The notes below the pieces were generated by a model. That model was not told where the DNA came from. It worked only from the letters and a program-made list of their open reading frames with translations, and ran no database searches. Of a stretch of DNA of 64,000 nt, positions 6,385 to 60,706 are shown one piece after another; the first letter of the stretch is position 1, and the number at the start of each line of letters is the position of its first letter. The DNA comes from Takakia lepidozioides (taxonomy: Eukaryota; Plantae; Bryophyta): NCBI GenBank assembly GCA_030704615.1, contig CM060734.1, forward strand, positions 34,348,001-34,412,000, in the 5' to 3' direction. Both the position numbers and the translations under genes were made by a program.

Positions 6385-6415
6385 GGACACGGCTTTTTGA
6401 GAGGGGGAGGGGTAA

Positions 6416-16694: not shown

Positions 16695-16705
16695 GCTCTG
16701 ATACC
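16695..16705 (-). other. tRNA-iMet primer-binding site of an older, degenerate LTR element; gag-like remnant near 15750-15870
   Basis: Minus strand reads ...gtgtgaca ggtatcagagc, an LTR end followed by the iMet PBS. FAGESQDVANWIE gag-like peptide lies downstream. Confidence 0.6.
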
Positions 16706-16752
16706 TGTCACACTTGCTAACAAAGCTCATTAGTCACAACAACAAAAGGGGG

Positions 16753-17105
16753 TGTCGTGCGCATACATATCGCTACACAACTACATCGCTATCCAAACCA
16801 CACCACACATAGATGCACAATAAAGTAGTCTGCCACAATCAGGCTCAAGTCGAGAGAGATGAGTTGCGCGACTGACGCTCTCGTGAAGATAAGATGGTTC
16901 AGGTGTCAAGCTCAAAATTGACACCTGACTTAACACTTGAACTAAATCCAAGTGTTAAATACAAATAACTAGTTTTATTCTAGTTAGTTTCACACTGTGT
17001 TTATTTAACTTGACAGCTGTCGTGCGCATACATATCGCTACACAACTACATCGTTGTCCAAACCACACCACACATAGATGCACAATAAAGTAGTCTGCCA
17101 CAATC
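16753..17105 (-). repeat. 3' terminal block of element 1: A (16753-16840), B (16840-17015), gc, A' (17018-17105)
   Basis: A and A' are 88-bp direct repeats with 2 differences; B matches 28221-28396; PPT-like aggggggc on the minus strand at 17106-17113. Confidence 0.95.
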
Positions 17106-17362
17106 GCCCCCCTAGCTGGTGGATAGGTCCCTCTAACTCCAGATAGCTACAAGATGTAATAGCCACAGCCGTACTAAGTTCTCTATCACTGGCCCTGTTG
17201 TACTCAAACTCTGTAGACCAAGAGGCCGGGTACAAGAGTAGCCCCATCGTTAGTCGCCGTCTTGCAATCTGTGAACTTGAGCCAGGATCTCGTGTGTTCA
17301 AGGTCTCCTAGTAGCTTGGCCTTGCATTTCTTGTTAGCCTCCCATGGTTGTATCCACTCCCT

Positions 17363-19342
17363 CTATCCAATGCATTGTGGACATAACCAATCCCCATCCG
17401 GAACCATCTCAAGAGGTGGAGTCAAGCATCCCATATGCCAACCTCTAGAGCATCGATCACACACCAGCATGGTGGCTGCCCCTTTAGCAGACCCACACAA
17501 CATGCACCTCAAACTTGCAGATACCACTGCCAGGTTTGGGTCAATCCTGCCATCGACATTCGGAAGGTGACATGGCGCACAATTACGCACATGGTCCTTC
17601 CAAGTTATGCCATCCCGACCCTCCAAGACCAAGATGCGTGAGGGCAAGACCTCTCGAACCCTCAAAATAACACGTCTTGCAGTCATATCCAAGGTCGTAG
17701 GAGCAGTCTGCTGTAGATAGACATAGTCACCAGGGTTGAATCTCCGAACCCCAGGACGATAGCCCCGACCACGTATGGTAGCATACCTCAACGTATCACG
17801 GTGTTGTGCAATGGCAAGGTTCTCGAAAGCCATGGGCATGACTTTCTTGAACAATTCTGCACGCTGCTCACATGCACGTGCCCACACGTCCGGATCGTCA
17901 AGGTTAAGAACTGTAGCAGCTTCTCTGCGAATGGATGTAGGCAAATCCGGCTCTCGGCCAAAGAGAAGAAAGTATGGTGAGAAGGAGGCAAGTGATGTTT
18001 GCTTGCTGAACCTGTAGCCCATGGCTAACCAGGGTAACTGAAGGTCCCAATCTCCTAGGTGTCCCTTCTGCAAGCCATACTTGCGCAAACCCCTCTTTAC
18101 TATCTGAACAACTCTCTCTGCCAAGCCATCGGCCTCAGGATGATCCCGAGAAGTGGTGCGGTGGTTTATCAAGGCCTTGTCACACAAAGCCTGAAACTCC
18201 CCCAAGAACTCTCTCCCTTGGTCCGTGAGTACCTCAGCTGGAGCACCGAATCGGCTAAGCACACAATCCAAGAATGCATACGCAGCTCCCTCACTAGCCT
18301 TATATGGAACCAATTCAATCCACTTGGAGAAGTGCTCCACCATCACCAATACGTACTTGTTGTGACGCATGGTCAGTGGCAATGGCCCTGCGAAGTCAAG
18401 ACTCCACCTGTAGCCCAATCCCATGATCGGAAGAGGGTGCAATTGTGGAGTAGGGGCGTTGAATGAAGCACGCACCCTGTCACACACCATGCACCTAGCC
18501 ACAAATTGTTGCACCTCTATGTGCATACCACGCCACCAATACTGCCCCTGCAGTAGACTATGAGTGCGTCGTACCCCAAAATGCCCCAACTCCTCATGGG
18601 CATGCCGCACTAACCGTGCCCGCTGTGTTGGGTGAGGCACAATCCTCACTCGACCATCCTCCCACACTCGGAGCAGGTGTGTCCCCTCCCACTTGAACCT
18701 CTTGGCTCGTTGTAGGATCCGATCCCTCTCCTTGGCAGTCACAGTGGCTGCAGTGCCTCCAGTGCGGAGGTAGTCCAACACAATTGAATCCTCATGTATA
18801 TCTTTGGCGCCACCTTGCTCATTGCTGGCCTCAGGGTCCTCAGACACTTGATCTATAGTCATCCCTGTTGCAGGTCCAACCTGGCCTCCCGCTGCCAAGA
18901 TACACAGGAATGCAGATGCATGCCATCCGGGCACCATCTCCTCGTCCGTCTCACCATGCCACCGAGCTCCAGTGTCATCCTGCTGGCTCGTGCATGGATT
19001 GCGACTCAACCTATCTGCATTGCGATTGACCAAACCCGGTCGATGCACAACCTGAAAGTCATATTCTTGAAGGATGAGTGCCCACCGTGCAAGCTTCCCC
19101 GTAAGCTTGTCTGACTCCATCAACCACTTGAGTGGTTGGTGATCCGTGACAAGGGTGAAGAGATTGCCGTATAGATAGCACCTGAAGTGTGCCACGGCCC
19201 ACACTGCAGCTAAGCATTCTCCCTCATATGAACTATACTTAGACTCTGCAACGTTGTTCGAACGGCTAGCATAAGCCACTACGAACTCTCTTCCCTCATC
19301 ATCCATTGTGTGAGCACCGCTCCAAGCCCCAGCATGCTCCAA
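17363..19342 (-). CDS. Pol C-terminus of element 1: RNaseH end, integrase (HHCC, DDE) and C-terminal PHD finger
   Basis: HEELGHFG...CMVC, LDFAGP, LTDQGREF, DGLAERVV, and CMLCG...LVCDRCSRGWHMGCLTPPL...WLCPQC (C4HC3). Confidence 0.95.
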   Translation of the reverse strand: MEHAGAWSGAHTMDDEGREFVVAYASRSNNVAESKYSSYEGECLAAVWAVAHFRCYLYGNLFTLVTDHQPLKWLMESDKLTGKLARWALILQEYDFQVVHRPGLVNRNADRLSRNPCTSQQDDTGARWHGETDEEMVPGWHASAFLCILAAGGQVGPATGMTIDQVSEDPEASNEQGGAKDIHEDSIVLDYLRTGGTAATVTAKERDRILQRAKRFKWEGTHLLRVWEDGRVRIVPHPTQRARLVRHAHEELGHFGVRRTHSLLQGQYWWRGMHIEVQQFVARCMVCDRVRASFNAPTPQLHPLPIMGLGYRWSLDFAGPLPLTMRHNKYVLVMVEHFSKWIELVPYKASEGAAYAFLDCVLSRFGAPAEVLTDQGREFLGEFQALCDKALINHRTTSRDHPEADGLAERVVQIVKRGLRKYGLQKGHLGDWDLQLPWLAMGYRFSKQTSLASFSPYFLLFGREPDLPTSIRREAATVLNLDDPDVWARACEQRAELFKKVMPMAFENLAIAQHRDTLRYATIRGRGYRPGVRRFNPGDYVYLQQTAPTTLDMTARRVILRVREVLPSRILVLEGRDGITWKDHVRNCAPCHLPNVDGRIDPNLAVVSASLRCMLCGSAKGAATMLVCDRCSRGWHMGCLTPPLEMVPDGDWLCPQCIG

Positions 19343-20340
19343 TCTGTATGCAGCTGAAAAGAACGCCCCCTAATAGGCCGTCTCAAGATGGGCGCCGAGG
19401 TCAACCTCGCCTTGAGCTCTTGAAAAGCTTGTTCTTGCTCATCTTCCCACTGACACTCCTGGTCCACCTTGGTCAGCTTGGTTAGAGCCTTTGCAATGGC
19501 ACTAAATCCCTTAACAAACCGTCTATAATAGTTTGCTAACCCCATGAAAGCTCGAACTCGGCTCACATCCATGGGGCGTGGAACCTGTGCAATGGACTCT
19601 ACCTTAGTCTGCTGTACCCCCAATCCTCCAGGATATATCATGTGACCCAGATACTCAATCTGGTTGTGGAAAAACTTGCACTTTCCCGGATGTAACTTCA
19701 ATCCGTGCGCCCTCAAGCGCTCAAATACCCCCTGAAGGTGTCTCTCATGCTCCTCCACCGTAGCACTAAAGATGATGATGTCATCTATGTAGCACCGAGC
19801 AAACTCCACCCCTGCTAGAATCCTGTCCATGACTCTTTGAAACTCAGCAGGAGCGTTTTTAAGCCCAAATGGTAAGAACCGCCACTGGTATAGGCAATCC
19901 TTCCCGTGCTCATTGATCCCCCAGAATGCCGTCTTTTGCTTATCCGCCTCCTTGATCGGCAACTGGTGATATCCGGATCGTAAATCCAACGTGCTAAAGA
20001 CCTTGGCATGCCCAATGGCATCAAAGATCTCCTCTGGTGTTGGCATGGTGATTACAGTCCGGTAATCACCGCACATACGTCTCTCCGTCCAATTGCCAAA
20101 GACATCCTTCTTGGCTGGCATCACTGTGGCTGAAGCATACTCTCCCCCAGATAGCTCCACCAAACCAGCCTCCCAAAGGTCTTGAGTTCTCATCTGAATC
20201 AAGAACCTCTCCATGTCACTGTATCTATAGGGTCTCCAAAAGATTGGCATGTCAGTAGCCAATTCAATGCGAATCTCTTGACCCTTCAGTGCTCCTAAGT
20301 CCTTCAAACTGAAGGCAAAGTAGTTCCTGTAAGCCCTCAA
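19279..20340 (-). CDS. Reverse transcriptase and RNaseH start, element 1
   Basis: RMCGDYR, LDLRSGYHQ, PFGLKNAPAEFQ, YIDDIIIF, YLGH, LHTDWS. Confidence 0.97.
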   Translation of the reverse strand: MRAYRNYFAFSLKDLGALKGQEIRIELATDMPIFWRPYRYSDMERFLIQMRTQDLWEAGLVELSGGEYASATVMPAKKDVFGNWTERRMCGDYRTVITMPTPEEIFDAIGHAKVFSTLDLRSGYHQLPIKEADKQKTAFWGINEHGKDCLYQWRFLPFGLKNAPAEFQRVMDRILAGVEFARCYIDDIIIFSATVEEHERHLQGVFERLRAHGLKLHPGKCKFFHNQIEYLGHMIYPGGLGVQQTKVESIAQVPRPMDVSRVRAFMGLANYYRRFVKGFSAIAKALTKLTKVDQECQWEDEQEQAFQELKARLTSAPILRRPIRGRSFQLHTDWSMLGLGAVLTQWMMREESS

Positions 20341-20769
20341 GAACCGCCGTATACGTCGTCTCTCTCCTCCCGTGACTATAGGTCCAACATCAGGCTCCCA
20401 GTTGTCCTCCGTGACTGCAACCTTGAGTCCAGCAGGCTTAGAGGTAGAAGACGCGTCCCGTGGTTGCTATGCTGCAACCTCTTGAGCAGTGACCACTGCC
20501 TCCTCTGTCCGTGACAATGTCTCACCCTGCCCCATCATCCCATCCTTGAGGACCTCCTCAACCCGAGACAAATCCCCAACCTGATCCATCACCGCCGCCT
20601 TGGCTGCCAACTCTTTATGAACCTCGAGCACCTCCCACGTGTGCCATGGATGCGGCCTGCACCTCGTGGTCCCCACCTGCTCGCCCCCACTCGCTGCCTG
20701 TACCGTCTCGGTAGGCAGGGAGACCATGAAGGGAAGTGTACTTCGCACTCTGCGCTGCTCAGCCATAGC

Positions 20770-21720
20770 CAAGCTGATGATCCAGGTCAAGCAATTGAGA
20801 TCCATTGCTTGCCCCAACACCTGACGACGTGATGCCTCAGAAAGAGAGGGCACCGCCGTGGTACCAGTGGTAAAACCCATCGCCCGCTCGCGCTCGTCAG
20901 CATTGGGCTCCACTAATTGTTGCAACTGGCTATCCCACAAGAGGCCAGGTCCACCATCCCGAAAAGCATGGGATCCTGGGAAGCTGAGCAGTGTAGGTAA
21001 TGCTGCTCGTGGTTGACCCACCCTGTTGACCACTGCCAAAGGCGAACGGTCATCGTGTCTCACACGTTGAGACTGCCTCCCTGTGTCCAAAATGCTATCC
21101 ACTGTGAGGTGTGCTGGCCACTGCACCCCATCAAATGCACGCTTGAGCAGTGCGGGTGGCATCAAGTTAGTCCACCATAGTCGTGGACGATGAGCCCGTG
21201 ACCCCACTGCAGCTGCATCCAGCAACAGTGCTGACCCAAGCCACGACCGGACTTGATGCACACTGGCCATCACCCTGGCCCGAGAATCACCCATCAATGG
21301 CACATTCTCCAAGATGTATGCTGGAGATACAGCTTGATGAAGCTGCAAGTGACGCAAAACCCGCACCATCTCCCAAAACAGACCCGTCCTTGAGTCTCGC
21401 AATCCATTGCCATACCCGGCTGATGAATGCCCTTGGCAGGGCCAACCTGCCACTACCAGATCAATGGAGCAACCTGCTCCAAATCCTGCGCCCCCTAGCA
21501 ACAAAATGTCTGCTGCAAGGCTTGTTGGTATCCACGAACTACAGACACTGGCAACAAATCAGGGTACTGATGTACCAACTGAGCAACATGGCGTCGTGAG
21601 ACGCGTCGTGTCTCATCCTTCTCCACATACAGGTAACGTCGAACTCGTACACCTGTCTGCAGCACTGCAGCCAATCCAGTGCTGATCCTGCCAAACAAGT
21701 CCAGAAGGCATATGCCTTCA
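20770..21720 (-). CDS. DNMT3-like C5 cytosine methyltransferase domain inside pol of element 1 (frameshift near 21500)
   Basis: Motif I LLDLFGRISTG; motif IV IDLVVAGWPCQG; motif VI YILENV; motif VIII DAAAVGSRAHRPRLWWTN; motifs IX/X ERERAMGF...SRRQVLGQAMD. Confidence 0.92.
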
Positions 21721-22099
21721 TCCGGGCACTGCCACACAAGAGGTGTGGTGTCCAATGGCGACAACTGAGGTGGTCCTGGTGCAATCACCGCACTCTCCTC
21801 TTCTCCTGACGGTACGAAGGCCTCTACCCAGGCTTGTTGCACCCGTCCATCAGCAGCCTGCTGCAAATCCTTACTCGTACCCCACAATGGAGTGTGAGCA
21901 ACCATGGCGGGCAACTCCGCCGTACCATGCATGTCATCCTGCTCTGCGGGAGGTGGCACATCCTCTGCATGGGCATTGCCCTCCAGCAACTCTCCAGGCC
22001 AACTAACTGCAGCTGTAAAGGCAGCTAGTGTTGGCATCTTGCCCCGCTGGGCAGCCGCAATACCTCCAATGAATGTCACAGGGAGCTGTACACAACGAC

Positions 22100-22520
22100 C
22101 CTCCCCTGACAGCCATCCAGGCCTATAGGAAGCTGACTCCTCCCAAAAATCCAGGGTGAAGCCCATGGGGTACAACACTGCCCCACCAACCAGGACATCG
22201 TACGAGACCGCGTCTATCACAATGGCCTTGGCTCGCATCACTGAGCCATCTGTAGGGTGATCCGGCTGTAGTACAATGGCCAACTCACGCCGTGTCATGC
22301 CCCGAGCCTACTCTGATCCTGCCAGAGATGTCTGTATCTGGAAAGGACAAGGCTCCATATCCGCCTCCATGAGGCCCAAACCTGCAATAGCAGCTCTGCC
22401 CAACATCAGTGGCTGAGCTCCCGAGTCCAACAAGACCCGCAGTGGCCGGTACTTCTTGCCTGCCGGTCCACTCAAAGTGAAAATGCCATCCTGGTTGTCT
22501 AACAAGACAACTCCAGGTGT
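22100..22520 (-). CDS. Aspartic protease, element 1
   Basis: VLLDSGAQPLMLG active site followed by YDVLVGG. Confidence 0.88.
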
Positions 22521-23058
22521 TACCATGGCGCGCTCAAAGGCTGGCCTAGCTGGCAGCTCCGTCAACCTGGCAGCTGCAGCTTGCCATGGCGCAACCATGG
22601 CAGTCTTGACCCTCAAATCCGAGGATCCCTCTCCCACTACACCTTCCACTAACTCCGCAGAAGATGAAGTGACCTCCCCACTCTTACATAGTGTTGCTGC
22701 TAGTCTGAACACTACAGCTGGTCTTACCCCGGCGTCGCAATCATGGTTGCCAAGAACAGTGGGGCTTGACACACAGAGGTGGCTGCCCCCAACAACACAC
22801 CGGCTGCACTAGCCTGGGTAGCAGGTGTCAGTGCTGTCACGTGTAGCTCTCCCCAATGGCATAGTAACCTCCGCCTCGGTAACATCGGGCGAGAACTAGG
22901 TGCCATGGATGGCGTCGACACAGTCTCCACCAATGTGAATGACTGAGGAGCCTCGCCTGACGGCTTGCCTCCCCATGCTGTGGATCCAATTCCACCTCTG
23001 CACCTCGTGGCTAAGGAACTCGTGCTACTCCTCGAGTCACGGCTGCAACAGACTCCAC

Positions 23059-24545
23059 CTACACTAGTGGTAGTGCTGCTCCGCACATGAATCCCATGCC
23101 TCCCATATCTCCTCCCTTAGGCGCAGGAGGTAGACCATCCCGCCTGGGAGCCGGTACCGCCTGAGCTGTAGCCATGGCAGCGAGCCTCTGCTCTAGCTGC
23201 TGAAGCCGGTTGGCCATGCCTTGGTCAACACCCTGACCTCCGCGTCCTTGGCCATGTTGAGCTTGCCCTTGGCCTGCACCTCGTGCCCGGCCACCTCGTC
23301 CTCTCTGGGCTGGTCCACCTCGCCCCCGGCCACCATTTTTCCCTTGGAACTGGCCTGGGCGCAACTCAGGATGCAAGTCATAACACTGGGCATCTCCATG
23401 CCCATACTTGCCACAATGCCCACACTGCAACTGTGCAGGCTGTGCTTGTGCCGGCCTTTTGCCACTCTCTGGGCAATCTCTCTTGACATGGGGTCCTCCA
23501 CATGTCCACATATCACCCCTGGTTGTTGTTGGCTTGCAAAAGATGCACGGCCTCTGCACCTGAGGTCCCCTATAAGCTCCATGGAACTTGGGTTGGGAAA
23601 CCTTGCCCCCCTGACCACGCTGTTGGGCAGTCCCTTGTGCCTGTGGGCTGGCAGCTGTGCCTCGTACAGGCATGTCCTTGCCAAATCAATGGTAACAACT
23701 CGCTCCTCCACCATGTTGAGCTCAATCCGCTCAGCCAACAGAAACACATCTGTTGATGTGGGTTGGGCCGCTTGTAATAGGGTTGCATCCCGCACCCTTC
23801 TCCTGAGCTCCTTGTCCAAAATTCCATACCAGAATTGGATTGCCTGAGCTTTAGTAACCCCTTGGGTCACACTTATCAAGCGCCTCATACGAGTGTAGGC
23901 CTCTCGCAGGCCGGGTTGAATCTAGGCACATGTGTTGTAGTCGTGGCAGGAGGAGTAGTAACACCTTTTGAACTGGTACCACCTGCAGAAGTACCGGCAC
24001 TACTTGTTCCACTACTAGTGCTGGCAGTGGGAGATATTGGTGCTGATGCAGCTACTGGTCGCGCCGTGCCTCGAGTAATAGAGACGTAGTCAAGTGACCA
24101 ATACATCCTCCACTCCTCAATCTCTGCTTCATGTCCTCGCCTGAACTCGTGGTAATCGTCCATAGGCGGGCTTTCCAAATTCTGGAACAGTCCCTTCCAC
24201 GCCATGAATAGGGTGAATAGCTGTGGATTACGCATCTGCTGCAAATCACACCAGCTGTCGAACTCCTGGATAAAGTCATCCAACTCGATTGTGCTTACAG
24301 CTCCAGAGTACCTACGAGGCCCCTTGGTAGCTCCATACATCTCCTCCATGTCGTCCCACACAATGGCGAATGAAACTGCACACCTGTTGATGAAGCCTCC
24401 GAGTCTGTGTCTGACTCTGCACTAGTGGAGGTGTGAGGTGAAGGTGGTCTGAAATGAACACCCTCGTCTGGTGAACCCACTCTCACTGCTACTGCCTGTA
24501 GCCGTACTCCCCTCAGAACCCCTGGGTAACTCCGTGATGACACTC
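23059..24545 (-). pseudogene. Gag of element 1 with two zinc knuckles; internal deletion near 23910
   Basis: LDDFIQEFDSWCD, YTRMRRL, WTCGGPHVKRDC, CGHCGKYGHGDAQC. Lacks the VVEFF...SESLRE segment present in the other two copies. Confidence 0.9.
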
Positions 24546-25176
24546 ACAATGTGCACCTCCCCCACGTGACACTATAAGGCTCTAGTACTAATTCTAATAG
24601 TGACACGGGTGGGCACCTGTTGCAGTTTAAGGGTCATATCCCAATGGCTCAGGGCACCTGCACTTGCATCCACCGCAAGAACTCCTATGGTTGGCTGGTC
24701 ATCAACCCAGTCTCACCATAGAAGAAACACTGGTGGTCTTGCTGGTCATCATCCAGCCTGGCATACTCTAGGATTGACCGGTGATCCAATCCGGCCTAAT
24801 CCCTATGAAAGCAAGCGCCCACACAAAACCAACATGGCGTACAGTCAAGCATGCAGGTGTTGGGGGGGATCCAAACACAAGAAATCAAACATCAACACCA
24901 ACCCCCACACCAAAATCCATCTGCAATGCGATCCTGCAGAATATCCCAGCCCAAACCCCGGACTGACTGGCCTCCACCAAAGAGGCTTTGGCAACTACAA
25001 GTACAAGGTAATGAAAATAGTATAGAGATGGAGGGGAAGAATAGAAGCCCGACCCAACAAGATCAACTGCCAGACTTCTCTCAAAGTGCCTCGCTCTGCA
25101 TGATGGTAAGGTGTAGGAGGTATATCTATGTCCAGAAACCTGCCACTAACCTTGTCCCAAGCTACAGTAGCTCGCT

Positions 25177-25701
25177 CTAACCAACCCTCCTCCTATTTCT
25201 GCCAGGTAGAGACAAAGCAATACTCCCTATCTCCCGCTCACTGAACACTAAAGAAAACAAAGGTAGGGTCTGATAGTCTCTCAACTCGAAAGCTTTGAGA
25301 CGATTGCGGGTATCCTCATTGCGGATGACTGCATCCCCTTCAAGCAAAACAAATTTGTCATTGCTAATGAACCCCCCCGCTCGTGATTGCCTTGTGCAGA
25401 GCGTGTCCGGCTGCAACCATGTCTGATTGCACAAACTTGTGTAGCTCATGCTCCTCTGCTCCAGTACACCACGGCCTTGTGGCTGACACCTTGGTACCCG
25501 GGGCTGTCTTTGGCTGTGTTCCAGCCTAGCTTTCACCCACTTTGGTATTTCACTTACAGCTGCAGAACTATTGGCTCCAACAGAGTTCTGACTGTCCAAA
25601 GCAACATTGAGGCCCTCAACGCCAACTACAGCAGTTTGTTGTCTACTGCTAATGCCTGACTCCCAGTATGCAATCAACTCGTCCAACTGTTCTCCACTCA
25701 A
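25177..25701 (-). CDS. Possible small ORF upstream of gag, function unknown
   Basis: 174-codon frame; homologous but disrupted sequence at ~45850-46370 in element 3. Confidence 0.3.
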   Translation of the reverse strand: MSGEQLDELIAYWESGISSRQQTAVVGVEGLNVALDSQNSVGANSSAAVSEIPKWVKARLEHSQRQPRVPRCQPQGRGVLEQRSMSYTSLCNQTWLQPDTLCTRQSRAGGFISNDKFVLLEGDAVIRNEDTRNRLKAFELRDYQTLPLFSLVFSEREIGSIALSLPGRNRRRVG

Positions 25702-26354
25702 ATCAGTCTGAGTTCTTGGGAGACATAAATCATGTCCCCTTGTTGCACAGGCTACGAGAAGAGAACCTGCCCTTCAATTACGTCCTCATTTCCCCCAGCC
25801 ATACAAGGAGTACATCCCCGATTTATCTCTCATGTAGACCAGAACAGTTCTAGAAACATGATTGTGGATCTTTCATGGCACACTCACTCCTCTAAAATTC
25901 CATAGATTTTAGTAGAGTCCCAAAAACAAAAACCAGGTCTAGATAGGTAGATATCCCATTTCTGCAGCTATCCCCTGAAAGACTGAGTCAAACGGAGCTC
26001 ATTTGACAAAGATATGACCAACCAGGCTCTTTAAACATAACACCTTTTTTCTTTCTTCCCCCCCCCCCCCCCCCCCCCCCCCCCCTTTTTTTTTAAATAA
26101 GACAGAACAAATACAAAGAATTTTTATTTTTATTTTTTAATACTTGTCTTGGTTCCCTGTTCCCAGGTTATCTACGGGTTCCCGAGGCCGTTCCCCTCGC
26201 ACTGTGAGCACACTACTGCCCCATTTCCAGTGCAGTTTGAGCATAGAATGCTGTTGGCTTTACTTGGAGGCGTGGACTGTGATGCCTGGACGCACACACT
26301 GCGGAGGACCACCATCACCGCATTTCCGAGCGCACTCCACAGCAGCAGTCTTCC

Positions 26355-26389
<35 letters not shown>

Positions 26390-26679
26390 ATGGCGGGACT
26401 TACAACAATAGCACAGGGCATCACAGCGTCCTTGGCATCAGCGGCATGGCGTGGGTGCCCTCAGATGCAGCTCACAGTAAGGGGCGATCTCGCATGGAGC
26501 AACCTCCTCTGTTGCACCAACTGTGCGCCGCCGAGAAGTGCTTCATCTGGTGGGAGCGACCTCAGGGTATGCAGCAGCTACTGCTAGCACCTGTGGTGGA
26601 GAGCGGGGTTGGCGCGCTCCACTACGCAGTGAATGCCTGGAAGTCTAGTACACCACAACACTCTCTCTCTCAACCTGCC

Positions 26680-26885
26680 CTTAGAAAGAAAACCATTCAA
26701 AGTGATCCCTCCCACTGCATTTGTCTCCGCAGCGTTTTTATAAATTAGATCCTCCCATGGGCTGCCACAAAATTGCAACAATCCATGTGTCTCTCTTTCA
26801 TTGTCAGAACCACCAGAACTGCATGATTGGAGGCGGCTATTGAGAAAAGCTCCTCCAGCTCCTGAGAACGCAGTGCACCATCCCC
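26680..26885 (-). pseudogene. MIRO: Captured fragment of a mitochondrial Rho GTPase (MIRO) gene
   Basis: GDGALRSQELEELFS and SPWEDLIYKNAAETNAVGGITLNGFLSK match the second EF-hand region of plant MIRO; the spacer between them ends in a splice-acceptor-like ttttgtggcag. Confidence 0.75.
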
Positions 26886-28220
26886 TCTTTGAGAATCTTG
26901 GACTGCAGACTGATGTGCAGGGCCCTTCTTCAGATGTGCAAGCTTTTTCATTGACAGCCCCTGTGGAAGTCGACCCACAAAGCTTGATGCAAAGACAGCC
27001 CACCGAATCTTGATTTCCTTTTCGAAACCCACTGTATGGTGCGGATGCCTTGCTTCATTCTTCGAATCTATGTACCTCTTCTTCCTCTTCTTCCAGCACT
27101 TGCAGAATTTCACATAAGGCACTTTTGTGCTCCCTTTGGTGTTGAAATCCTTTTGGAATGTTGAAGTATCGGTGGAATATCGGTGCCAACGTATGGCCCG
27201 TACACAGTTCAGATTTCGTGTCAAAGACTGCTTCCAACACCTCCCTCAAGGTGAGACCAACCCTGCCCTGAAACGCGAGGACAGCCTCAGCTTCGTCTAA
27301 TATGAAGTAGACTTTTGACATGTAAAAAGGAGAATCAACACCCTCCTCCAGCCGTGCCTACTGCAATGTAATCACAATGTAGTCACAGACACCAGCATTC
27401 TCTCCTTCGCCACGCATTTTCGCATAGTTCACCATCGGCTGGGGAGTTGAGCCAACATTGGAGGATTCATAGTTGGGAGGCATCCGCTTTCTTTGCCGCC
27501 ATGATCTTATATGCTTGTCTTTTCCCTAGCTCCTACTCGTAGCCGATGTCGAGAAGGCAATGTCAGGTTCTGCTACGTGCTCACGATAGCCGAATCTCTG
27601 ATCGTCATAAACAGATTGCTTTGCTCGGCCCTCAGTCCGTTAGTTGCGTAGGATATCACACTGCGAAGTCATCAACGTAATTCCTGCCCATCATCTGGTA
27701 GCAAACTACTTCTCCCGCAGGCCTTGCCTTGTACAATCGTAATCATGAATGCCAATGACAGCACAGTGTCTATAGCCGCACCCTAGCAAGCTGTTTTCCC
27801 CCGTGAGTTCATAAGTTGCTAAGTGGTGATCACAAGTAGAGCGGCAGCTCCGCCTCTCCTCATAGGCTCAAATCATCAAAAAACAAACAGATGGCATCGT
27901 CTCGCCCCACCTGCACTTGCACACCCTTCCAAGCATTGCTCACCTTCTTTCAACAAATCGTTTCTCTCACTTTTAAAACAAAAACCACAAGTGCTAAAAC
28001 TAAACTCACCTCTGGCATTCACAGATGCAAGCCTCATCTCTCTCGAGTGATAAGAAAGAACTAAACTCCAATAACAAGATAAACACAAACCAACACCATC
28101 ACTCTTTAAAATAGAAGTCGAGCCAGGGGCACCCCAAGCTATGGGGACTCCACCCCATAACAACCTATCCTCCCATCATAAACACACTCAGTTCTAAACG
28201 CATACAGGAGCTCGGTCGCG

Positions 28221-28396
28221 CAGGCTCAACTCGAGAGAGATGAGCTGCGCGACTGACGCTCTCGTGAAGATAAGATGGTTCAGGTGTCAAGCTCAAACTT
28301 GATACCTGACTTAACACTTGAACTAAATCGAAGTGTTAAATACAAATAACTAGTTTTATTCTAGTTAGTTTCACACTGTGTTTATTTAACTTGACA
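28221..28396 (-). repeat. 5' terminal repeat B of element 1, with no adjacent A copy
   Basis: 176 bp; I count 5 differences from 16840-17015. Confidence 0.95.
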
Positions 28397-29682
28397 GGGG
28401 GTTTAGAAAATCAACACAATAATGTCGGATATACATGGATTAACCCAAGTCTAAAACACACCATGTTGTACTTTTTTTGTCGTAAGGGCTACGTTTACTG
28501 AACCACATGTTCATTTGACATTATCTACGCAATGCAAAGTCTAATGCATAATTGACCACCAATCGACATTGTACGCTTAATGCCTAAATTGACAGACCAC
28601 CAAAATCGACATTGCATGACCACTGTAAAATCGAATAGACTACCAATCGACTTTAGCACCGATCAACAAATTTGATCCATCTGTAATTCCAATCTATTTT
28701 TTATTTTTATTTATTGATATTTTATTATGTGAGGGAAAAAATAAACCCCTGTGGGGCCATAAGGCAACACACCTGACGGTGAGGGACGAACCCAGAGTAC
28801 TTTTAACGGAGAGAAATCCATCCAAGAGGATGAGGTGGAATGCTACGATTAAGAAAAACAACTAGGAGAGGGTCAAGAGCGAAAGTAGTGCTCACGAGAT
28901 GCGAGCTTTAAATGAGGGCAAGGGTATGCCGACTAGCCCTGACAGATTCCTACCACTGCTAAACAATGAGAAGAGCATCCTATAAGTGAACTTTGCATCT
29001 TTAGAACAAGGAAGCCAGGATTTGCTTGAGAGAAGAAAGCCTTGGAGAGATCAGCTATGAGCGATCCATTTCAAGCAGGGATTGGAGCCCAAGAGAGATA
29101 ATAAAAGAGAACACTTAGAGTAAGGCATTCTTGAAGACATAGACCAGGGAGCATGTTTTCACAGCTGGCGTTGGAGGTCGCTACTTGCCGAAGCTAAGCC
29201 AAGTTGAGTTCCTGCCATTGATGTGCTTCCAATTAATTTCCCTATCGAACTCCGGTGAGTCATGGTAGCACAATGATTGCCCCTTGCCAGGAGTCCGGTG
29301 GGTCTCTGGTCCAGAGACAGATTGTCGAGGAAGAGCAGTTGCATATGATGTTAATTTTCCCCCAAGAGCATTTGAATTTGTTGTCACAGCAATTATAGGG
29401 TTAAGTGCAATTCCTATGTTTGCATTTGGATTTTGAAAGTCAATTGATCTCATAGGAGCCTTGGAGTTGGAGGGGAGTCCAGTGATTTCATGATTTGGAT
29501 GTGACATTGCGGGTGTTGCTGGGCTATCTTCAGAATCAACAAGTATTGTTGTGGATGTGATGATTGGCCCATGTTGTGGGGATGACTGATCTCGTGGGGC
29601 CTCCATTCGCTGAATTCCGCTGTAACTCCGGTATTGGTGACCATAGAATGCCAGCTGACATCTCCTCGCCGCCATGGATATA

Positions 29683-32199: not shown

Positions 32200-32818
32200 T
32201 GTCAAGTTATTTTACCACTAGTGTGAAACTAGCTAGGAAATAGCTAGTTTTTACATATTGACATTTGGGATTGGCCCAAGTGTCAATCCAGGGGTCAAGG
32301 CAAATTTAGGCCCTGGAGTGGTTATCTTCACGGCAAGCACGGGAGGCTCATCTTTCTCGAGTTGAGCCTCACCGCGCCTAGCTATGGCGCCGTAGTGTGG
32401 ATTCCCCATGGCGTGGGGTGCACTTGGCTTTACTTGTATTTGAGTGATGAGGTTATATATGCATGAGTTTATGCTTCAGATTTGTGAGCTCGTGCTTGTA
32501 TTCTTCTTCTTTATCACTCGAGAAAGATCAGCTCGTATCTGTGAGTGCCAGATACGAGTTAGTTGTAGCACTTGTGGTTTTTGCTTGAGAATGAGAGAAA
32601 CCAGGTTGTTATGCAAGGAGCATCGTGGAGCTCTTGGTTGTTAGAAGCGAAGGCGATGTGGGTTACGAGGTGGTAGACCTTGGCATTCGATCTTCAGCTT
32701 CAGAGATGAAAGCACCATGCTGCATTGCACTTTGTGGAGTATGTTGAGATTGGGTTTCAATCTCGAGCTTCAGCATTGAGAGGGCTCTTGTCATGGCAAG
32801 AGCAGGGCTGGAACATGA
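32200..32818 (+). mobile_element. 5' end (B repeat and leader) of a third, diverged subfamily of the split-repeat Gypsy
   Basis: Starts tgtcaagtta; colinear similarity to the element 1 5' end (gtgtgaaacta, ttatcttcacg, gctcatct..agttgagcc, tccccat..tggggtgc). Confidence 0.75.
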
Positions 32819-33559
32819 TGTCAAGTTAACTAAACACGGTGTGAAACTAACTAGAATAAAGCTAGTTAGTTGTATTTAACACTTGGATTTAGTTCAAGTG
32901 TTAAGTCAGGTGTCAAGTTTAGCTTGACACCTGAACCATCTTATCTTCACGAGAGCATCAGTCGTGCGGCTCATCTCTCTCAAGTTGAACCTGCACGACC
33001 GAGCTCCTTCTCTGCTTAGAATCTGAGTGTGCTTATGAAGGGAGAATAAGATGTTGTGGGGTGGAGTCCCCATAGCTTGGGGTGCCCCTGGCTCGACTCT
33101 TAGTTTTAATGAGTGATTGTGTTGTATTGAGTGTTTCTGTGTCAACAGTGTGAATCTAGTTTCAATCACTCGAGAGAGATCATCTATCTAGTTTTCTAGT
33201 GCTAAGCTAGATATGATGTTTTTGTTTTTAAGCACTATTAGAATATAGCTTGGTCACAGGGAGCATGCAGTTAGACTGGCTATGTGTGCCGAGTGGAGCA
33301 AAACAAGAAGGCGGAAACCATTTGAAGGAGGTTAGCTATTTCATGAGCATGAGCGGCATGAGCGGAGTAGTAAGACAATCGGTTTTCATGAGCAGAAGTA
33401 CAAATTTCGAAAATAAAAAACAATAAAAAAACAATAATTTAATGCAATGTGTCAGGAAAAACAAATATATTATTCGGCCCCTTGAAGGGAAAATTGTAGT
33501 TTTGACAGTTGTGCTCATGATATTTCGTCTTCCGCTCATGCCAATTCCCAGCGACATGT

Positions 33560-45560: not shown

Positions 45561-47024
45561 AGTTTTTAATGGCGAGAACGTTTTGGTGTTAAAAAAAAAA
45601 GAAAAAAAAGAAAAAAAAAAAACCCCATTTTGATCTAATTTAAATGATTTAGAGCCTAATTGGTCATATCTTTGTCAAATGGACTCCGTTTGACTCAGTT
45701 TTTGGGGGAATAGCTGCAGAAAGGGGAAATCTACTGGTTTTAGTTTTTTGGACTCTGCTAAAAATCTATGGAATTTTTTGAGTGTGAGTGTGCTAGGATA
45801 GATCCACAAGGGGACAAGATTCATGTTTCTCAAGGAACTTAGACTGATTTGAGTGGAGAGCAGTTGGACGAGTTGATTGCATACTAGGAGTCAGGCATTA
45901 GCAATAGACAACACACTGCTGTAGTTGGCGTTGAGGGCCTCAATATTGCTTTGGACAGTCAGAACTCTGTTGGAGCAAGCAGTTCTGCAGCTGTAGGTGA
46001 ATACCAAAGTGGGTGGAAGCTAGGCTTGGAACACAGCCAAAGACAGCCCCGGGGACCAAGGTGTTCGGCCACAAGGCCGTGGAGTACTGGAGCAGAGGAG
46101 CGGGATCTACACAAGTTTTTGCAATCAGACATGGTTGCAGCCGGACACGCTCTGCACAAGGCAACCACGAGCGGGGGTTCATTAGCAATGACAAATTTGT
46201 TCTGCTTGAAGGAGGTGCAGTCATTCGCAATGAGGATACTCGCAACCGTCTCAAAGCTTTCGAGTTGAGAGACTGTCAGACCCTATCTTTATTTTCTTTA
46301 GTATTCAGTGAGCGGGAGATAGGGAAGTATTGCTTTGTCTCTACCTAGCAAAAAGAGGAGGAGGGTTGGTTAGAGCGAGCTATTGTAGCTTGGGACAAGG
46401 TTAGTGGCAGGTTTCTGGACATAGATATACCTCCTACACCTTACCATCATGCAGAGCGAGGCACTTTGAGAGAAGTCTGGCAGTTGATAGCATAGATCAG
46501 GACTAGATCTTGCTTGGTCGGGCCTCTATTCTTCCCCTCCCTCTTTTTACTATTTCCATTACTTTGTACTTGTAGTTGCCAAAGCCTCTCTTGGTGGAGG
46601 CCAGTCAGTCCGGGGTTTTGGGCTGGGATATTCTGCAGGATCAGCACTGCAGATGGATTTTGGTGTAGGGGTGTTGATGTTTTGATTTCTTGTGTTTGGA
46701 TCCCCTACATCACCTGCATGCTTGACTGTGCGCCATGTTGGTTTTGTGTGGGCGCTTGTTTTCATAGGGATTAGGCCGGATTTGATCACCAGTCAATCCT
46801 AGAGTATGCTGTCGATGCTGAGGCTGGAGTGATGACCAGCAAGACCACCAGTGTTTCTTCTATGGTGAGACTGGATTGATGACCAGCCAACCATAGGAGT
46901 TCTTGCGGTGGATGCAGGTGCAGGTGCCCTGAGCCACTGGGATATGACCCTTAAACTGCAACAGGTGCCTACCCGTGTCACTATTAGAATTAGTACTAGA
47001 GCCTTATAGTGTCACGTAGGGGAG

Positions 47025-48240
47025 GTGCACGTTGTGAGTGTCATCACGGAGTTACCCAAGGGTTTTGAGGGGAGTACGGCTACAGGCAGTAGCAGTGAGA
47101 GTGGGTTCACAAGACGAGGTATTTGGTTCAAACCACCTTCACCTCCACCCTCGACTACTGTAGAGTCCGACACAGACCCGGAGGCTTCATCAACAGGGGT
47201 GCAGTTTTCTTCGCCATTCTTGTGGGACGACATGGAGGATATGTATGGAGCTACCAAGGGGCCTCGTAGGTACTCTGGAGCTATGGGCACAATCGAGCTG
47301 GATGACTTTATCCAGGAGGTTCGACAGCTGGAATGATTTGCAACAGATGCGCAATCCACAGCTGTTCACTCCATTCATGGCGTGGAAGGGACTGTTCCAG
47401 CATTTGGAAGGCCTGCCTATGGACGATTACCACGAATTCAGGCGAGGACATGAAGCAGAGATTGAGGAGTGGAGGATGTATTGGTCACCTGACTACGTCT
47501 CCATTACTCGAGGCACGACGCGACCAGTAGCTGCATCAGCACCAATATCTCCCACTGCCAGCACTAGTAGTGGAACAAGTAGTGCCGGTACTTCTGCAGG
47601 TGGTACCAGTTCAAAAGGTGCTACTACTTCTCTTGCCACGACTACAACACATGTGCCTAGATTCAACCCGGTGGTGGAGTTCTTCCAGGAGTTGCGGACG
47701 AACTACCAAGGCATACGGACAGAGAAGCTGCGAAGTTTGCAAGACTTCCAGCGCAAATCCAGTGAGAGCTTGCGAGAGGCCTACACTCGTATGAGGCGCT
47801 TGATAAGTGTGACCCAAGGGATTACTGAAGCTCAGGCAATCCAGTTCTGGTATGGAATTTTGGACAAGGAGCTCAGGAGGAGGGTGCGGGATGCAACCCT
47901 ATTACAAGCAGCCCAACCCACATTAACAGATGTGTTTCTGCTGGCTGAGCGGATTGAGCTCAACATGGTGGAGGAGCGAGTTCTTACCATTGGATTTGGC
48001 AAGGACATGCGTGCACCAGGCGCAGCTGCCAGCCAACAGGTACAAGGGACTGCCCAACAGCGTGGTCAGGGGGGCAAGGTTGCCCAACCCAAATTCCATA
48101 GAGCTTACAGGGGACCTCAGGTGCAGAGGCCAGTAGCTTCTTTTGCAACCCAACAGCAACTAGGGGTGATATGTTGGACATGTGGAGGACCCCATGTCAA
48201 GAAAGATTGCCCAGAGAGTGGCAAAAGGCCGGCACAAGCA
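47025..48240 (+). pseudogene. Gag of element 3, frameshifted near 47320 and truncated
   Basis: FDSWNDLQQMRNP, FQRKSSESLREAYTRMRRL, CWTCGGPHVKKDC. Confidence 0.9.
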
Positions 48241-49172
48241 AAGGGTGCTCGCTCACAAAGGTTTGCTAATCCCAAACAGTAGACCGTAAGGACACGGCTT
48301 TTTGAGAGGGGGAGGGGTAATGTTAGAGGGCTGCTTGAGACTTGGACGCTTTTATGGGTTCTGTGGGGTACCCTTAATTTTTGCGTAGACTGAGACCAAC
48401 ATGAGTCTTAGGGGTGGCAGAAGCAGGCTTTAGGGGGGTTACACAACCCGACACAGCTTCACACAGCCCGACACAGCTTCGCACAGCCAGTCACAGCCCG
48501 ACGCAGCTTTACATAGCCAGTCACAACTTGGCACAGCTTGACACAGCCTACCACAGTACATGAGGAACAGTTATCATTGACAGGGAATGACTGTGAGGGA
48601 ATGACATCTGCAGAGGGAACGTGTTACTTCAGGGGTGACGGTTAGTTAGTTAGGTGGTTGCGGGTAGATTAGGAGAGCGGCAACGGGAAGGGGAGGACTG
48701 GGAGAAGAGGGCGACTTGTTCAGGAGAGGAGGAGACGTAACGGAGAGCGGGAAATAGTGAAGAGGAGATGATGACTTGAATAAGGATTAGTTCATGCAAG
48801 CTGTAGAATTATACAGTAGGATAGAATAGAGACACCATGGCGTAGGCATGATACATGATTAATCTTAATCCGATACTGAATCGATACAAACATACTGTGT
48901 AGAGAGACACGAGAGAAGCTGTGGAATGAATGCATGATTAACTAGAACTTAGTAGATACTGAAGCAATCTGATGCTTCAGTATACACGGTAAGGTAAATT
49001 GATAACATGAAGGCAGGAAGGAATACAAATAGGAAGCACAACCATGATTCACTAGCTGCAAGTCATGACTGATTGTTTTGAGCGGGCTGAGTGCTTAGAG
49101 ATATCCAACTCTTCTATCTTGGAGTTTCCACCTCGGATAGCGAAGGGATGGGTGAGTAAAAGCCGCTCGACA
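48241..49172 (+). mobile_element. Second 3' end of family X (last ~80 bp of internal region, PPT, LTR 48321-49172) fused to the truncated gag
   Basis: Colinear with 6336-7361; abrupt junction at 48240/48241. Confidence 0.9.
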
Positions 49173-54115: not shown

Positions 54116-54658
54116 TATCGTGCACCTAAGCATCGTGCCACAACATACATCGCTATCCACCATACATTCTAAGCACACAATCCTAGAAAGCTATGCCACA
54201 ATGATAATGGAAGTGAACACACAATGGAAACACTCCACTCATGAATCCACTCAATCACATAAACTAAGTCAAGCCAAGGGCACCTTTGCTAAGGGAATCC
54301 ACCCTACAAAGCCCTCACCACACTCCCTCTCAATACCTAGAGCTATGGAGGTAGGAGAGGCTCATGGAGGCTCAACTACAAGAAGATGAGCCCTCCTCAA
54401 CACTCACAAGGGGAAAACCCATCCCCATGTCCCAAGTGAGGTTTGACACCTCACTTGGCATGTGAGACCAAATGAAGTCCCAACACACAAAATACAAATA
54501 AAAATATCCAAAATGTCCTAGTTAACTAGAAGTAGGTAATTCTAGTTAACCATGACTAAAACCATGACAGCTGTCGTGCACTTAAGCATCGTGCCACAAC
54601 ATACATCGTTGTCCACCATACATTCTAAGCACACAATCCTAGAAAGCTATGCCACAAT
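54116..54658 (-). repeat. 3' terminal block of element 2: A (54116-54202), B (54203-54569), gc, A' (54572-54658)
   Basis: 87-bp direct repeats; junction tgacagctgtcg; PPT-like aggggggc at 54660-54667. Confidence 0.93.
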
Positions 54659-54913
54659 TGCCCCCCTAGTTGGTGATTAGGTCCCTCTAACACCGGATAA
54701 CTGACAAGTATCCATCTCAATAAAATCATCGCTTGGTCTTCAATCGCACATGTCCCAGTATCTAAAGTTAATAGATCAAGAGGCCGGGTGCAAAAGTAGC
54801 CCCATCGTTACTCGCCTTCCTGCAATCCATGATCTTCAATTAAATATCCCTGGCGTTGAGCTCCCATCAGCTAGACCTTGGATCACTTGTCAATTCCACC
54901 ATTGTCATGCCCA

Positions 54914-56968
54914 CTACTTATGTCCAAGGCATCGTGGACACAACCATTCTCCACTAGGAACCTCCTCAAGTGGCGGTGTCAAGCGTTCCATGTGCCACCC
55001 CCTTGAGCATTTGTCACACACCAACATGGTCGCGGCACCACCAGCATGCCCACATAGCATGCACCGCAACCCTGCAGGTACCACTGCAAGGTTGGGATCT
55101 ATCCTCCCATCCACATGTGGAAAGTGACATGGCGCACAATTGCGCACATGGTCCTTCCATACCATGCCATCTCGACCCCCCAGAATCAACACTCCTGAAG
55201 GCAACACCTCCCGGACCCTTAGAATCACACGCCCTGCTGTGACATCCAAAGTCGTAGGCGTTGTCTGCTGCAGATACACATAGTCCCCAGGGTGGAAACG
55301 CCGAACACCTGGCCGATATCCCCCTCCACGTATAGTGGCGTACCTCAACGTGTCTCGGTGTTGGGCAATAGCAAGGTTCTCAAAAGCCATAGGCATGACT
55401 CTCTTGAACAACTCTGCCAGCTGGGCACATGCTTGTGTCCACACATCCAGATCATCAAGGTTGATAACTACTGCAGTCTCCCTGCAAATAGATGCAGGCA
55501 AATCTGGCTCTCGGCCAAAGATAAGGAAATACGGCAAGAACGAGGCAAGTAATGCTTGTTTGCTAAACCTGTAGCCCATGGCCAACCAAGGTAGCTGAAG
55601 GTCCCAATTTCCTAAGTGTCCCTTCTGCAAGCCATACTTGCGCAAGCCTCGCTTGACTGTTTGTACAACCCTCTCTGCCAGGCCATCAGCCTCGGGATGA
55701 TCCCGAGAAGTAGTGCGGTGATCTATCAAGGCTTGCTCACACAAAGCCTGAAACTCCCCCAAGAACTCTCTCCCCTGGTCCGTGAGTACCTCGTCTGGAA
55801 CACCAAATTGGCTAAGCACTCGATCTAAGAATGCATACGCAGCCCCCTCACTTGCCTTGTCAGGCAATGCCACTAGTTCAATCCACTTGGAGAAATGTTC
55901 CACCATCACCAGCACATACTTGTTATGGCGAATCGTTAGTGGCAATGGGCCTGCGAAGTCAAGATTCCAACGATAGCCCAAACCCATAATGGGTAAAGGA
56001 TGCAATTGTGGAGTAGGTGCATTGAAAGAAGCTTGCACTCTATCACACACCATGCACCTTGCCACTAACTGTTGCACATCCGTGTGCATGCCCCGCCACC
56101 AGTACTGTCCTTGCAGCAAACTATGAGTGCGCCGCACCCCAAAATGTCCTAACTCCTCATGGGCATGGCGTACCAATCGCGCTCGTTGTGTTGGATGAGG
56201 CACAATCCTCACTCGTCCATCCTCCCATACTCGGAGTAGGTGAGTCCCCTCCCACTTGAACCTTTTGGCTCGTTGTAGGATCCGATCTCTCTCCTTAGCA
56301 GTCACACTGGCTGCTGTCTCTCCAGTACGAAGGTAGGCCAACACTGCTGCATCTTCATGTACATCCTTAGCACCACCAAGCTCCTCACTGATCTCCGGAT
56401 CGTCATGCACACCATCTACATGACCAATGCTATGGGATGGACCAGCTTGAGCTCCCATTGCTAGGATGCACAAAAAGACAGATGCATGCCATCCTGGCAC
56501 CATCTCCTCATCCGTCTCACCATGCCACTGAGCTCCAGTATCATCATGCTCGCTCGTGCATGGATTACGACTCAATCCATCTGCATCCCGATTGACAATA
56601 CTGACTCGATGCACCACCTGAAAGTCGTATTCTTGAAGCATAAGTGCCCACCGTGCAAGCTTCCCTGTAAGCTTGTCTGATTCCATCAACCACTTCAATG
56701 GTTGGTGATCCGTGACAAGGATGAAGAGATTGCCATAGAGGTAGCATTTGAAATGTGCCACTGCCCATACCGCAGCTAGCTCCCCTTCATAGGAACTATA
56801 CTTCGCCTCGGCATCATTGCTTGAGCGGCTAGCATATGCCACTACGAACTCTCTTCCCTCATCATCCATCTGTGTGAGCACTGCTCCAATCCCCAGCATA
56901 CTCCAATCCGTATGTAGCTGGAAAGGCCGCCCCCGAATAGGCCGCCTCAGAATAGGTGCAGAAGTCAA
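54914..56968 (-). CDS. RNaseH, integrase and PHD finger of element 2
   Basis: LHTDWS, HEELGH..CMVC, LDFAGP, TDQGREF, CMLCG..VCDKC..WH..WLCPRC. Confidence 0.95.
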   Translation of the reverse strand: MTSAPILRRPIRGRPFQLHTDWSMLGIGAVLTQMDDEGREFVVAYASRSSNDAEAKYSSYEGELAAVWAVAHFKCYLYGNLFILVTDHQPLKWLMESDKLTGKLARWALMLQEYDFQVVHRVSIVNRDADGLSRNPCTSEHDDTGAQWHGETDEEMVPGWHASVFLCILAMGAQAGPSHSIGHVDGVHDDPEISEELGGAKDVHEDAAVLAYLRTGETAASVTAKERDRILQRAKRFKWEGTHLLRVWEDGRVRIVPHPTQRARLVRHAHEELGHFGVRRTHSLLQGQYWWRGMHTDVQQLVARCMVCDRVQASFNAPTPQLHPLPIMGLGYRWNLDFAGPLPLTIRHNKYVLVMVEHFSKWIELVALPDKASEGAAYAFLDRVLSQFGVPDEVLTDQGREFLGEFQALCEQALIDHRTTSRDHPEADGLAERVVQTVKRGLRKYGLQKGHLGNWDLQLPWLAMGYRFSKQALLASFLPYFLIFGREPDLPASICRETAVVINLDDLDVWTQACAQLAELFKRVMPMAFENLAIAQHRDTLRYATIRGGGYRPGVRRFHPGDYVYLQQTTPTTLDVTAGRVILRVREVLPSGVLILGGRDGMVWKDHVRNCAPCHFPHVDGRIDPNLAVVPAGLRCMLCGHAGGAATMLVCDKCSRGWHMERLTPPLEEVPSGEWLCPRCLGHK

Positions 56969-57920: not shown

Positions 57921-58419
57921 GCCCTTAGAAATCGCTGGATCCTCCGTCTCTCTCCTCCGGTGACTGTAGGTCCAACATCTGGTTCCCAGTTGTCCTCAGT
58001 GACTGCAACCTTGGGTACACCAGGCTTGGAAGTAGGAGACGCATCCTTTGGTTGCTAGATAGCAACCTCTTGGGCTTTATCCGCCCACCCTAACCGTGGC
58101 GTAGCCTCCACTTGCTCCGCCATAGCCACCTTGAGAACATCCTCTGGGGAAGAAACATTCTCAACCTCTTCAAAAATATTGGCCACCTTGGCCTCCAACT
58201 GATCCTCAATGTATGGCTCTCCCCACTCCTCATACTGCTGCTTGAGAGATCCAATGACTCTCTATTTGCGCATCTCATCCCACATCTGCCATGGGTGTTT
58301 GCACCCCATGATCCTATGCTCGCCCCCACTCACTGCCTCAACCGTCCCGGTTGGCAGAGGGGATACAATACCAAATGGGAGTGCAGAAGTTGCCACCACT
58401 GTCTGCAACCTCCGTTGCT

Positions 58420-59380: not shown

Positions 59381-59395
59381 TGAGTCAGGTGGTTG

Positions 59396-60607: not shown

Positions 60608-60706
60608 TGTGAAAGACTATGGAAGCCTTGTTTGCCGACTTGCTTCCCCTCTTCGTGGATCAAAATCCACATCCACTCCTCTTGGCTCAGGAGCACGCGT
60701 TGCTGC

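Follow-up and report, generated by a model that had tools for sequence, protein, structure and literature searches.

A palindromic end junction inside a DNMT3- and PHD-carrying Ty3/gypsy element as its probable integrase attachment site

The palindrome described here is made up of the right and left ends of a DNMT3- and PHD-carrying Ty3/gypsy element, joined to one another. Judging from its sequence context, we consider it likely that this palindrome is the element's only integrase attachment (att) site, that it lies inside the LTR and not at the ends of the cDNA, and that it is cut by the integrase, which would create both ends in this way, whereas in textbook retrotransposons the ends of the DNA copy are trimmed. 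A wider proposal, which we put forward with measured confidence, is that in a lineage spread across bryophytes, charophytes and probably green algae the att site has moved from the cDNA ends into U3; integration would then be obligatory by integrase cleavage of the encoded junction, host end-joining would close the true cDNA ends, and the integrase would be one with a lineage-wide D(34)E spacing.

The window, i.e., the whole stretch of 64,000 nucleotides that was analysed, contains the 12-mer TGACAGCTGTCG at 17011-17022 and again at 54565-54576, as a first-pass annotation of this DNA had reported; a search of the window found these as the sole two matches with at most one mismatch (chance expectation: mean 0.30, two matches being reached in 4 of 100 shuffles). 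The palindrome of element 1, GACAGCTGTC (17012..17021, no strand assigned), comprises the end of B1, a GC spacer at 17016-17017 and the start of A2, and is the putative integrase cleavage site; that of element 2 lies at 54566..54575 (likewise without strand), with its GC spacer at 54570-54571. In element 1, the junction reads as the right end (..CACGACA), GC and the left end (TGTCA..), and GC is missing from both inserted ends, which bears out the annotation's description of two termini joined by two extra nucleotides absent from the integrated ends. The flanks, which it had called divergent, are so mainly on the A side; the B side can still be aligned between the two elements.

The two copies sit in minus-strand retroelements that are homologous to one another, with 80% identity across 3.5 kb, and for that reason they are not independent evidence. 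Reads over 16985-17031 give no alternative letter at 5% or more among the rows listed, and one run that we guess to be RNA covers B1 and does not cover the junction. A perfect 10-bp palindrome is ordinary by itself (there are 65 in the window), and the region is rich in nested fragments; both would suit a reading in which the palindrome is fortuitous and the 3' block is either an assembly artefact or what a tandem or nested insertion left behind. That reading is scarcely credible, for a contig from a second organism label spans the junction (with an element-2 type A in front), target duplications flank the whole A...B unit and none is found at the junction, the same layout has been published for Klebsormidium, and the conservation given below already refutes it. 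The weight of the junction palindrome thus comes from its position and from distant relatives, not from palindromy alone.

Plant-type elements have the layout A1-PBS-ORFs-PPT-B1-GC-A2-B2. Element 1 spans 16753..28396 on the minus strand, the strand of all its parts below, as A1-leader-gag-PR-DNMT-RT-RH-IN-PHD-PPT-B1-GC-A2(truncated)-B2, and both it and element 2 are interrupted by stops and frameshifts. A1 (28048..28396, 349 bp) forms the left end of the inserted element and begins TGTCAAG; B2 (16753..16840) forms the right end, which closes on CACGACA, and has two differences from B1 (17018..17105, 88 bp). B1, the putative start of the true 3' LTR, is immediately preceded by the polypurine tract (PPT, 17106..17113). 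A2 (16840..17015) corresponds to the first 176 bp of A, whose full length is 349 bp, and is thus short by 173 bp, the loss falling exactly at the start of B2. A1 and the 368-bp A2 of element 2 can be aligned over their whole length (score 83 vs. -61 +/- 14 for shuffles); a boundary for A at 176 bp was rejected, as primer pairing is weak there (shuffle P 0.11). We also rejected the idea that a primer-derived site in B2 is marked by the two B1/B2 differences, which elements 1 and 2 share; the same site decays randomly in either copy of relatives.

The coding part of element 1 contains RNase H, the integrase (H2C2 and rve; D325-D383-E418, D(34)E) and a PHD finger at 17363..19369, the reverse transcriptase (RT) at 19279..20466, which starts behind an in-frame TAG and has Ty3 RT as its nearest solved relative, a DNMT3-like C5 methyltransferase region at 20467..22307 that is split over two frames, and broken aspartic-protease-like and gag-like frames at 22308..24421, recognized through weak matches in the homologous frames of element 2 and of a related locus (L078). 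The in-frame TAG, followed by CAA CC, lies between the DNMT and RT frames at 20467-20469 and 58055-58057 of the window (both minus strand) and in L007 and L057, i.e., in 4/4 copies checked; from this context it is likely to be a read-through stop. In the 3.6-kb leader of element 1, a frame at 26587-27054 (minus strand) has a weak EF_assoc_1 match (E 0.0036, short of the curated cut-off), possibly a captured piece of a host gene for a Miro-type GTPase.

Element 2 (minus strand) is represented by its 3' block at 54116..54667 (PPT 54667-54660, B1 54658-54572, GC, a full-length A2 at 54569-54202 and B2 54202-54116) and by a coding region from gag to PHD at 54914..62158; its 5' end is absent from the window. 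Three further pieces lie on the plus strand: a 5' end (A and PBS) of a third subfamily at 32200..32528, another such 5' end from a further copy near element 1 at 32819..33180, and an internal fragment with leader and gag at 45651..48243 that is 91-94% identical to element 1. Element 1 sits just before a stretch that resembles the LTR end and PBS of another element (16690-16752 and 28397-28440), with a similar stretch at 62845-62900; the PBS resembles one of the Met-tRNA type. A separate repeated element (6336-7362 vs. 48241-49173, 82% identity) contains 10-bp tandem repeats (2505-2612, 6552-6745 and 48442-48569), 33670-33999 and 37982-39470 are occupied by arrays whose units of 53-96 bp are built around a palindromic GGCGCC core, and there are PPR gene fragments at 10340-10942, 32066-32200 and 50072-51103, the one at 32066 being broken by the 5' end at 32200.

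The window frames thus contain RNase H, H2C2 and rve integrase, PHD, RT and C5 methyltransferase domains, and the order gag-PR-RT-RH-IN is as in Ty3/gypsy, with the DNMT inserted between PR and RT and with weak matches for PR and gag. The best PDB match of the RT is Ty3 RT (E 2e-51, the next at 5e-29), the methyltransferase is closest to DNMT3A, and the integrase, in which the DDE triad and the zinc-binding domain are present, is closest to the foamy-virus and Ty3 integrases. Between its second Asp and the Glu there are 34 residues in 89/89 motif-matched homologs (of 120, 31 being unmatched), a spacing one residue shorter than in Ty3 and HTLV-2 (35). No family match to a tyrosine recombinase was found in 26 window frames and 24 further frames, 19 of the latter from four complete relatives. 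The Ty3/gypsy trait of TG...CA termini with a 4-6 bp target duplication is present; two complete terminal direct LTRs are absent, the inserted ends being A and B and the PPT adjoining the internal B1. Named homologs come from Riccia, Calypogeia, Sphagnum, Marchantia, Closterium, Klebsormidium and Tetraselmis; the comparison with K. nitens is at the protein level only (44% identity to one protein, P0088). Together with the PPR fragments of the window, these homologs suggest that the host is a seed-free land plant. The plant families have the DNMT between protease and RT; in ten distant loci (L027, L039, L048, L052, L053, L055, L059, L060, L062 and L063) it follows RT/RNase H and precedes the integrase.

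Relatives were sought among metagenome contigs with an alignment of 27 integrase-PHD sequences, and the best 80 of 496 loci were analysed; a viral contig collection gave no relative. These 80 comprise 28 plant-type loci with the junction (22 distinct insertions), 9 distant loci with the junction (8 distinct, at 44-49% protein identity, and probably algae), 16 in which B is directly followed by flank, 4 that are rearranged, 18 that are truncated or broken beyond the integrase, and 5 distant loci in which the junction was not found in the 1.5-1.7 kb covered. Matching was ungapped, so that copies with indels at the junction were missed (in L022 it is deleted). The 30 distinct related loci and the two window copies add up to 32 distinct junctions, a count that overstates independence because the plant-type loci come mostly from few metagenome series and three families.

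All 32 read CA, two bases, and TG or its decay TA (30 of them from the best 80 of 496 loci). Within the same set the spacer is GC in 17, AC in 7, GT in 3, AT in 3, TC in 1 and AA in 1, and hence GC or its C>T/G>A decay in 30/32; it is GC in 8/8 of the distant loci. AC, GT and AT are the changes expected from C>T/G>A decay of methylated CWG; this motif is underrepresented in both moss-type loci tested (0.55 and 0.62) and shows no such shortage in distant loci (1.2-2.6). The outer arms of the junction vary yet remain near-palindromic, L059 having a perfect palindrome of 16 bp, and the CAGCTG core is kept while the flanks change. The order PPT-B-CA-nn-TG-A is common to the 32 elements (again 30 from the best 80 of 496 loci), down to 44-49% protein identity, and it is this order that refutes a scar or artefact. 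The first-pass annotation had suggested comparing the junction across copies and species, and such a comparison, over several plant-type families and 8 distant loci, finds it conserved. The long layout is documented outside the distant loci, whose contigs stop early or continue into the leader; the contigs of L051, L059 and L002 run from the junction through A into the leader, and that of L051 has identical ends of 123 bp, a picture that either collapsed repeats or one-LTR circles would give.

Of 12 complete relatives, 10 have a 4-bp target duplication flanking the inserted ends, which is exact in 7 and differs by one transition in 3 (chance 0.022 each), and none has one of 5 bp; L025 and L073 are the complete relatives without the 4-bp duplication. 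Element 1 was left out of this count because of the G run at both flanks (G5 at 16748..16752 and 28397..28401, plus strand), in which 4 and 5 bp are indistinguishable. Read from these flanks, CA ends with 4-bp duplications are the signature of concerted DDE integration, the spacer being lost on insertion. The short form, A-ORFs-B, was found in 15 distinct loci among the best 80 of 496, four of them with 4-bp duplications. A single case, a short-form copy in L025 (L025:2514 and its 3' end), has two extra bases beyond the terminal CA and a 6-bp near-duplication, and may represent an aberrant integration that kept the spacer.

The same signature bears on the question of what opens the junction. 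It is very unlikely that another agent does so (a host nuclease or a tyrosine recombinase acting in trans), or that cleavage begins on a single strand and another kind of step produces the second end. Integrase cleavage is here read from sequence, and foamy-virus junctions, from which 2 nt are also lost, were at first explained by asymmetric processing (PMC1180852, the part available), which leaves some room for such an agent; against it stand the CA ends with 4-bp duplications, the lack of a recombinase match in the frames scanned, and a CAGCTG core that persists amid changing flanks.

Where reverse transcription would begin and end is indicated by the priming signals. In the plant families a G-rich tract stands immediately before B1, and the first base of B2 agrees with that of B1 to within a few nucleotides; among the best 80 of 496 loci such a tract lies 49-207 nt before the junction in 30/30 related loci. 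A search behind A1 for a PBS of the tRNA type (TGG) found none. Instead, A1 is immediately followed by 11-12 nt whose reverse complement occurs inside A, 150-183 nt from its start; in element 1 this gives a predicted PBS at 28036..28047, immediately after A1, and a 12-nt predicted self-primer in A1 at 28230..28241 (both minus strand), which is also the predicted transcription start. The complement was followed in 15 5' ends from four families, where 11-12 of 12 pairs form within a family vs. 3-8 across families, and the copy at 32200 has a compensatory change in primer and PBS; L003, without the primer stretch, is outside the 15. Mean pairing probability is 0.69-0.98 in 12 of these ends and 0.16-0.32 in 3 decayed copies. 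Nine of the 15 have a TATA-like box 22-32 nt upstream, and none was found in the window's own three 5' ends or in three of the L017 family. Inverted matches of 11-12 nt, a comparison without a control that is left out of the argument, occur in the distant loci L051, L059 and L062, three loci being too short. In the family of L007, L056 and L057, a second PBS-like copy in A lies directly upstream of the predicted primer, with which it forms a short hairpin. We infer that the element primes itself in the manner of Tf1, from a predicted RNA start; the Tf1 primer, in work by Levin from 1995, is said to be 11 nt long. Because the PPT adjoins B and the PBS adjoins A, the true LTR is likely to be B-GC-A, with the att site inside U3.

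The route that we favour would then run as follows. An RNA starting ~150-180 nt into A would prime itself as in Tf1/Tf2, and ordinary LTR reverse transcription would give B-GC-A...PPT-B-GC-A. The integrase would cut CA^GCTG after CA on both strands, so that each of the two ends would bear a 3' CA-OH and a 5' overhang of 2 nt, as processed retroviral ends do, and the GC overhang would be removed by host repair. The free cDNA termini (the end of A and the start of B) would be joined by host end-joining, either before insertion (as a 2-LTR circle) or after it, which would produce a variable A2|B2 joint. Opening at the 5'-LTR junction would yield A-PBS-ORFs-PPT-B-GC-A-B, which is the long form observed and the only form whose RNA would keep both the junction and terminal redundancy; the short form would be a dead end, coming from the cutting of a one-LTR intermediate, from the cutting of both junctions, or from later B1xB2 recombination. 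The first-pass annotation had proposed that an internal att copy acts either as cleavage site or as template. Both roles are indicated by the priming signals, since a junction in the U3 of an LTR B-GC-A would be copied from the 3' part of the RNA into both LTRs and then cut (the cutting by integrase being a prediction); its notion of a stored extra copy is less apt than that of an only att site.

The A2|B2 joint differs from the commonest joint of its family in 10 of 20 distinct relatives, the departing joints showing 1-3 nt microhomologies, a PPT or PBS base left behind, B shortened by 5 nt, 17 nt inserted (L013) or 215 nt of A missing (L033). Joints of this kind are likely to be end-joining scars of the cDNA termini. 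The same joint recurs in 5/7 of one family and 5/13 of another, and identical joints within families fit inheritance of B2 as well as blunt ligation. For the short joint of element 1 there is one listed contig, at about single-copy depth (69.6 vs. 74.9 in the flank), with 27 letters on its shorter side, which is below the bridging threshold, and the run may be the source of the window; the loose ends of at least 15 contigs join B to sequence resembling the end of a full A, with low agreement.

The weakest step is the choice of junction. Equal use of both junctions of a 2-LTR circle was rejected, as the alternative opening (A-B-GC-A-PBS) was seen in 0 of 17 distinct 5' ends. A timing assumption is needed because such a circle has two identical junctions and the other opening is nevertheless missing from these ends; we suggest, tentatively and as somewhat less likely than not, that the integrase takes the 5'-LTR junction, which would be the first completed as duplex after the second strand transfer, the 3' junction being re-formed only after 9-11 kb of plus strand. 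For this step, one could also imagine that the element's DNMT methylates one of the two junctions and so steers the integrase to the other. The junction has CG and CWG sites and decays like methylated DNA, and the DNMT is DNMT3-like, but host methylation explains the decay equally, and the distant element L051, which looks complete, carries the junction and gives no DNMT match at E 1e-3. Control by the element's DNMT is, given L051, less likely than a timing bias, and we regard it as improbable.

The single permutation and the shared joints would also be accounted for if the junction were a template only. In that case the RNA would run through B2, and extra strand transfers between A and B copies, as for Ngaro/PAT, would rebuild a linear cDNA with spacer-bearing ends that the integrase merely trims; the A1-B1-A2-B2 layout is indeed as in PAT/Ngaro (PMC4157794, in its available part). 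We find this unlikely: the PPT adjoins B and the PBS adjoins A, so that standard priming sets the cDNA ends at the start of B and the end of A; an A2 that has lost most or all of its transcribed part exactly at the start of B (element 1 and L033) would be hard to inherit via RNA; and one 2-nt spacer would need to supply both ends. Among the points that count against an internal att site itself are the missing alternative opening, the 2 of 12 relatives without a duplication, the 5' ends in which no TATA-like box was found, the poor pairing in the 3 decayed copies, the lack of the primer stretch in L003, and the same joints within families.

The layout of these elements is already known, having been drawn for KnitGypsy-Dnmt3; the junction and the proposed mechanism are new within the literature searched. 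For KnitGypsy-Dnmt3 of Klebsormidium nitens, de Mendoza et al. (2018, PMC5890265, available in part) note in their Fig. 4c legend a DIRS-type repeat structure combined with gypsy domains, and this element resembles the present one in its gypsy domains, in the Dnmt3-like domain in pol and in the DIRS-like repeat layout; it was reported from one alga, whereas here the element is in a land plant. In the text of PMC5890265 that was available, we found no junction, termini, target duplication, priming sites or mechanism for it. The name KnitGypsy is confined to that paper in the literature searched, and a 2026 preprint (10.64898/2026.05.21.726589, available in part) names Gypsy-DNMT3 once. Our search, with most subscription journals and Repbase outside its coverage, found no paper on an internal att site in a lineage of the KnitGypsy-Dnmt3 type. 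LTR-finding programs that need two terminal LTRs would miss this whole lineage in seed-free plants.

Tf1/Tf2, Sushi and the plant element Tcn1 likewise have no tRNA PBS and carry, right after the 5' repeat, a PBS that is complementary over a short length to the predicted start of the RNA, but they have ordinary LTRs with att at the ends, whereas here there are PHD and DNMT domains and a probable internal att site (PMC5341516 and PMC6317226, as far as available). Ngaro/PAT elements share the split direct repeats A1-B1-A2-B2 and an internal B|A junction matching the joined ends (PMC4157794, same part). Here, in contrast, there is no recombinase match, and there are a DDE integrase, a Ty3-like RT, a PPT, TG...CA ends and 4-bp duplications. 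Elements of the DIRS order (Ngaro/PAT) are not known to have a target duplication. If our reading is true, it also shows how a shift of the attachment site within an ordinary LTR can give rise to split repeats like those of Ngaro/PAT.

The circle junctions of the IS3 and IS30 families offer another likeness, in that a DDE enzyme opens abutted inverted ends with a 2-3 bp spacer; those are bacterial DNA transposons with a transposase-made junction, whereas here the junction would be carried in the RNA. Work on HIV-1 has reportedly also dealt with the circle junction as an integrase substrate. In vitro, the palindrome at which two LTRs of foamy virus meet is cleaved by the viral integrase behind the CA of either strand (Delelis et al., 2005, PMC1180852); what our element would share with it is a palindromic junction that gives processed ends when cut, with 2 nt lost on integration. 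Whether a closed palindromic end junction is a real integrase substrate has so far been argued, in the available part of that paper, from in vitro and inhibitor work. The present family is natural and abundant, its anatomy leaves little other route, and it makes sharp predictions for the cDNA ends, the cut site and the overhang. In foamy virus the junction comes only from ligated cDNA ends and is a side route (PMC1180852, the same part), whereas in the present case the element itself encodes the junction, and integration would have to pass through it; if this is true, these elements provide a natural and essential version of the disputed route in which a circle junction is the integration precursor.
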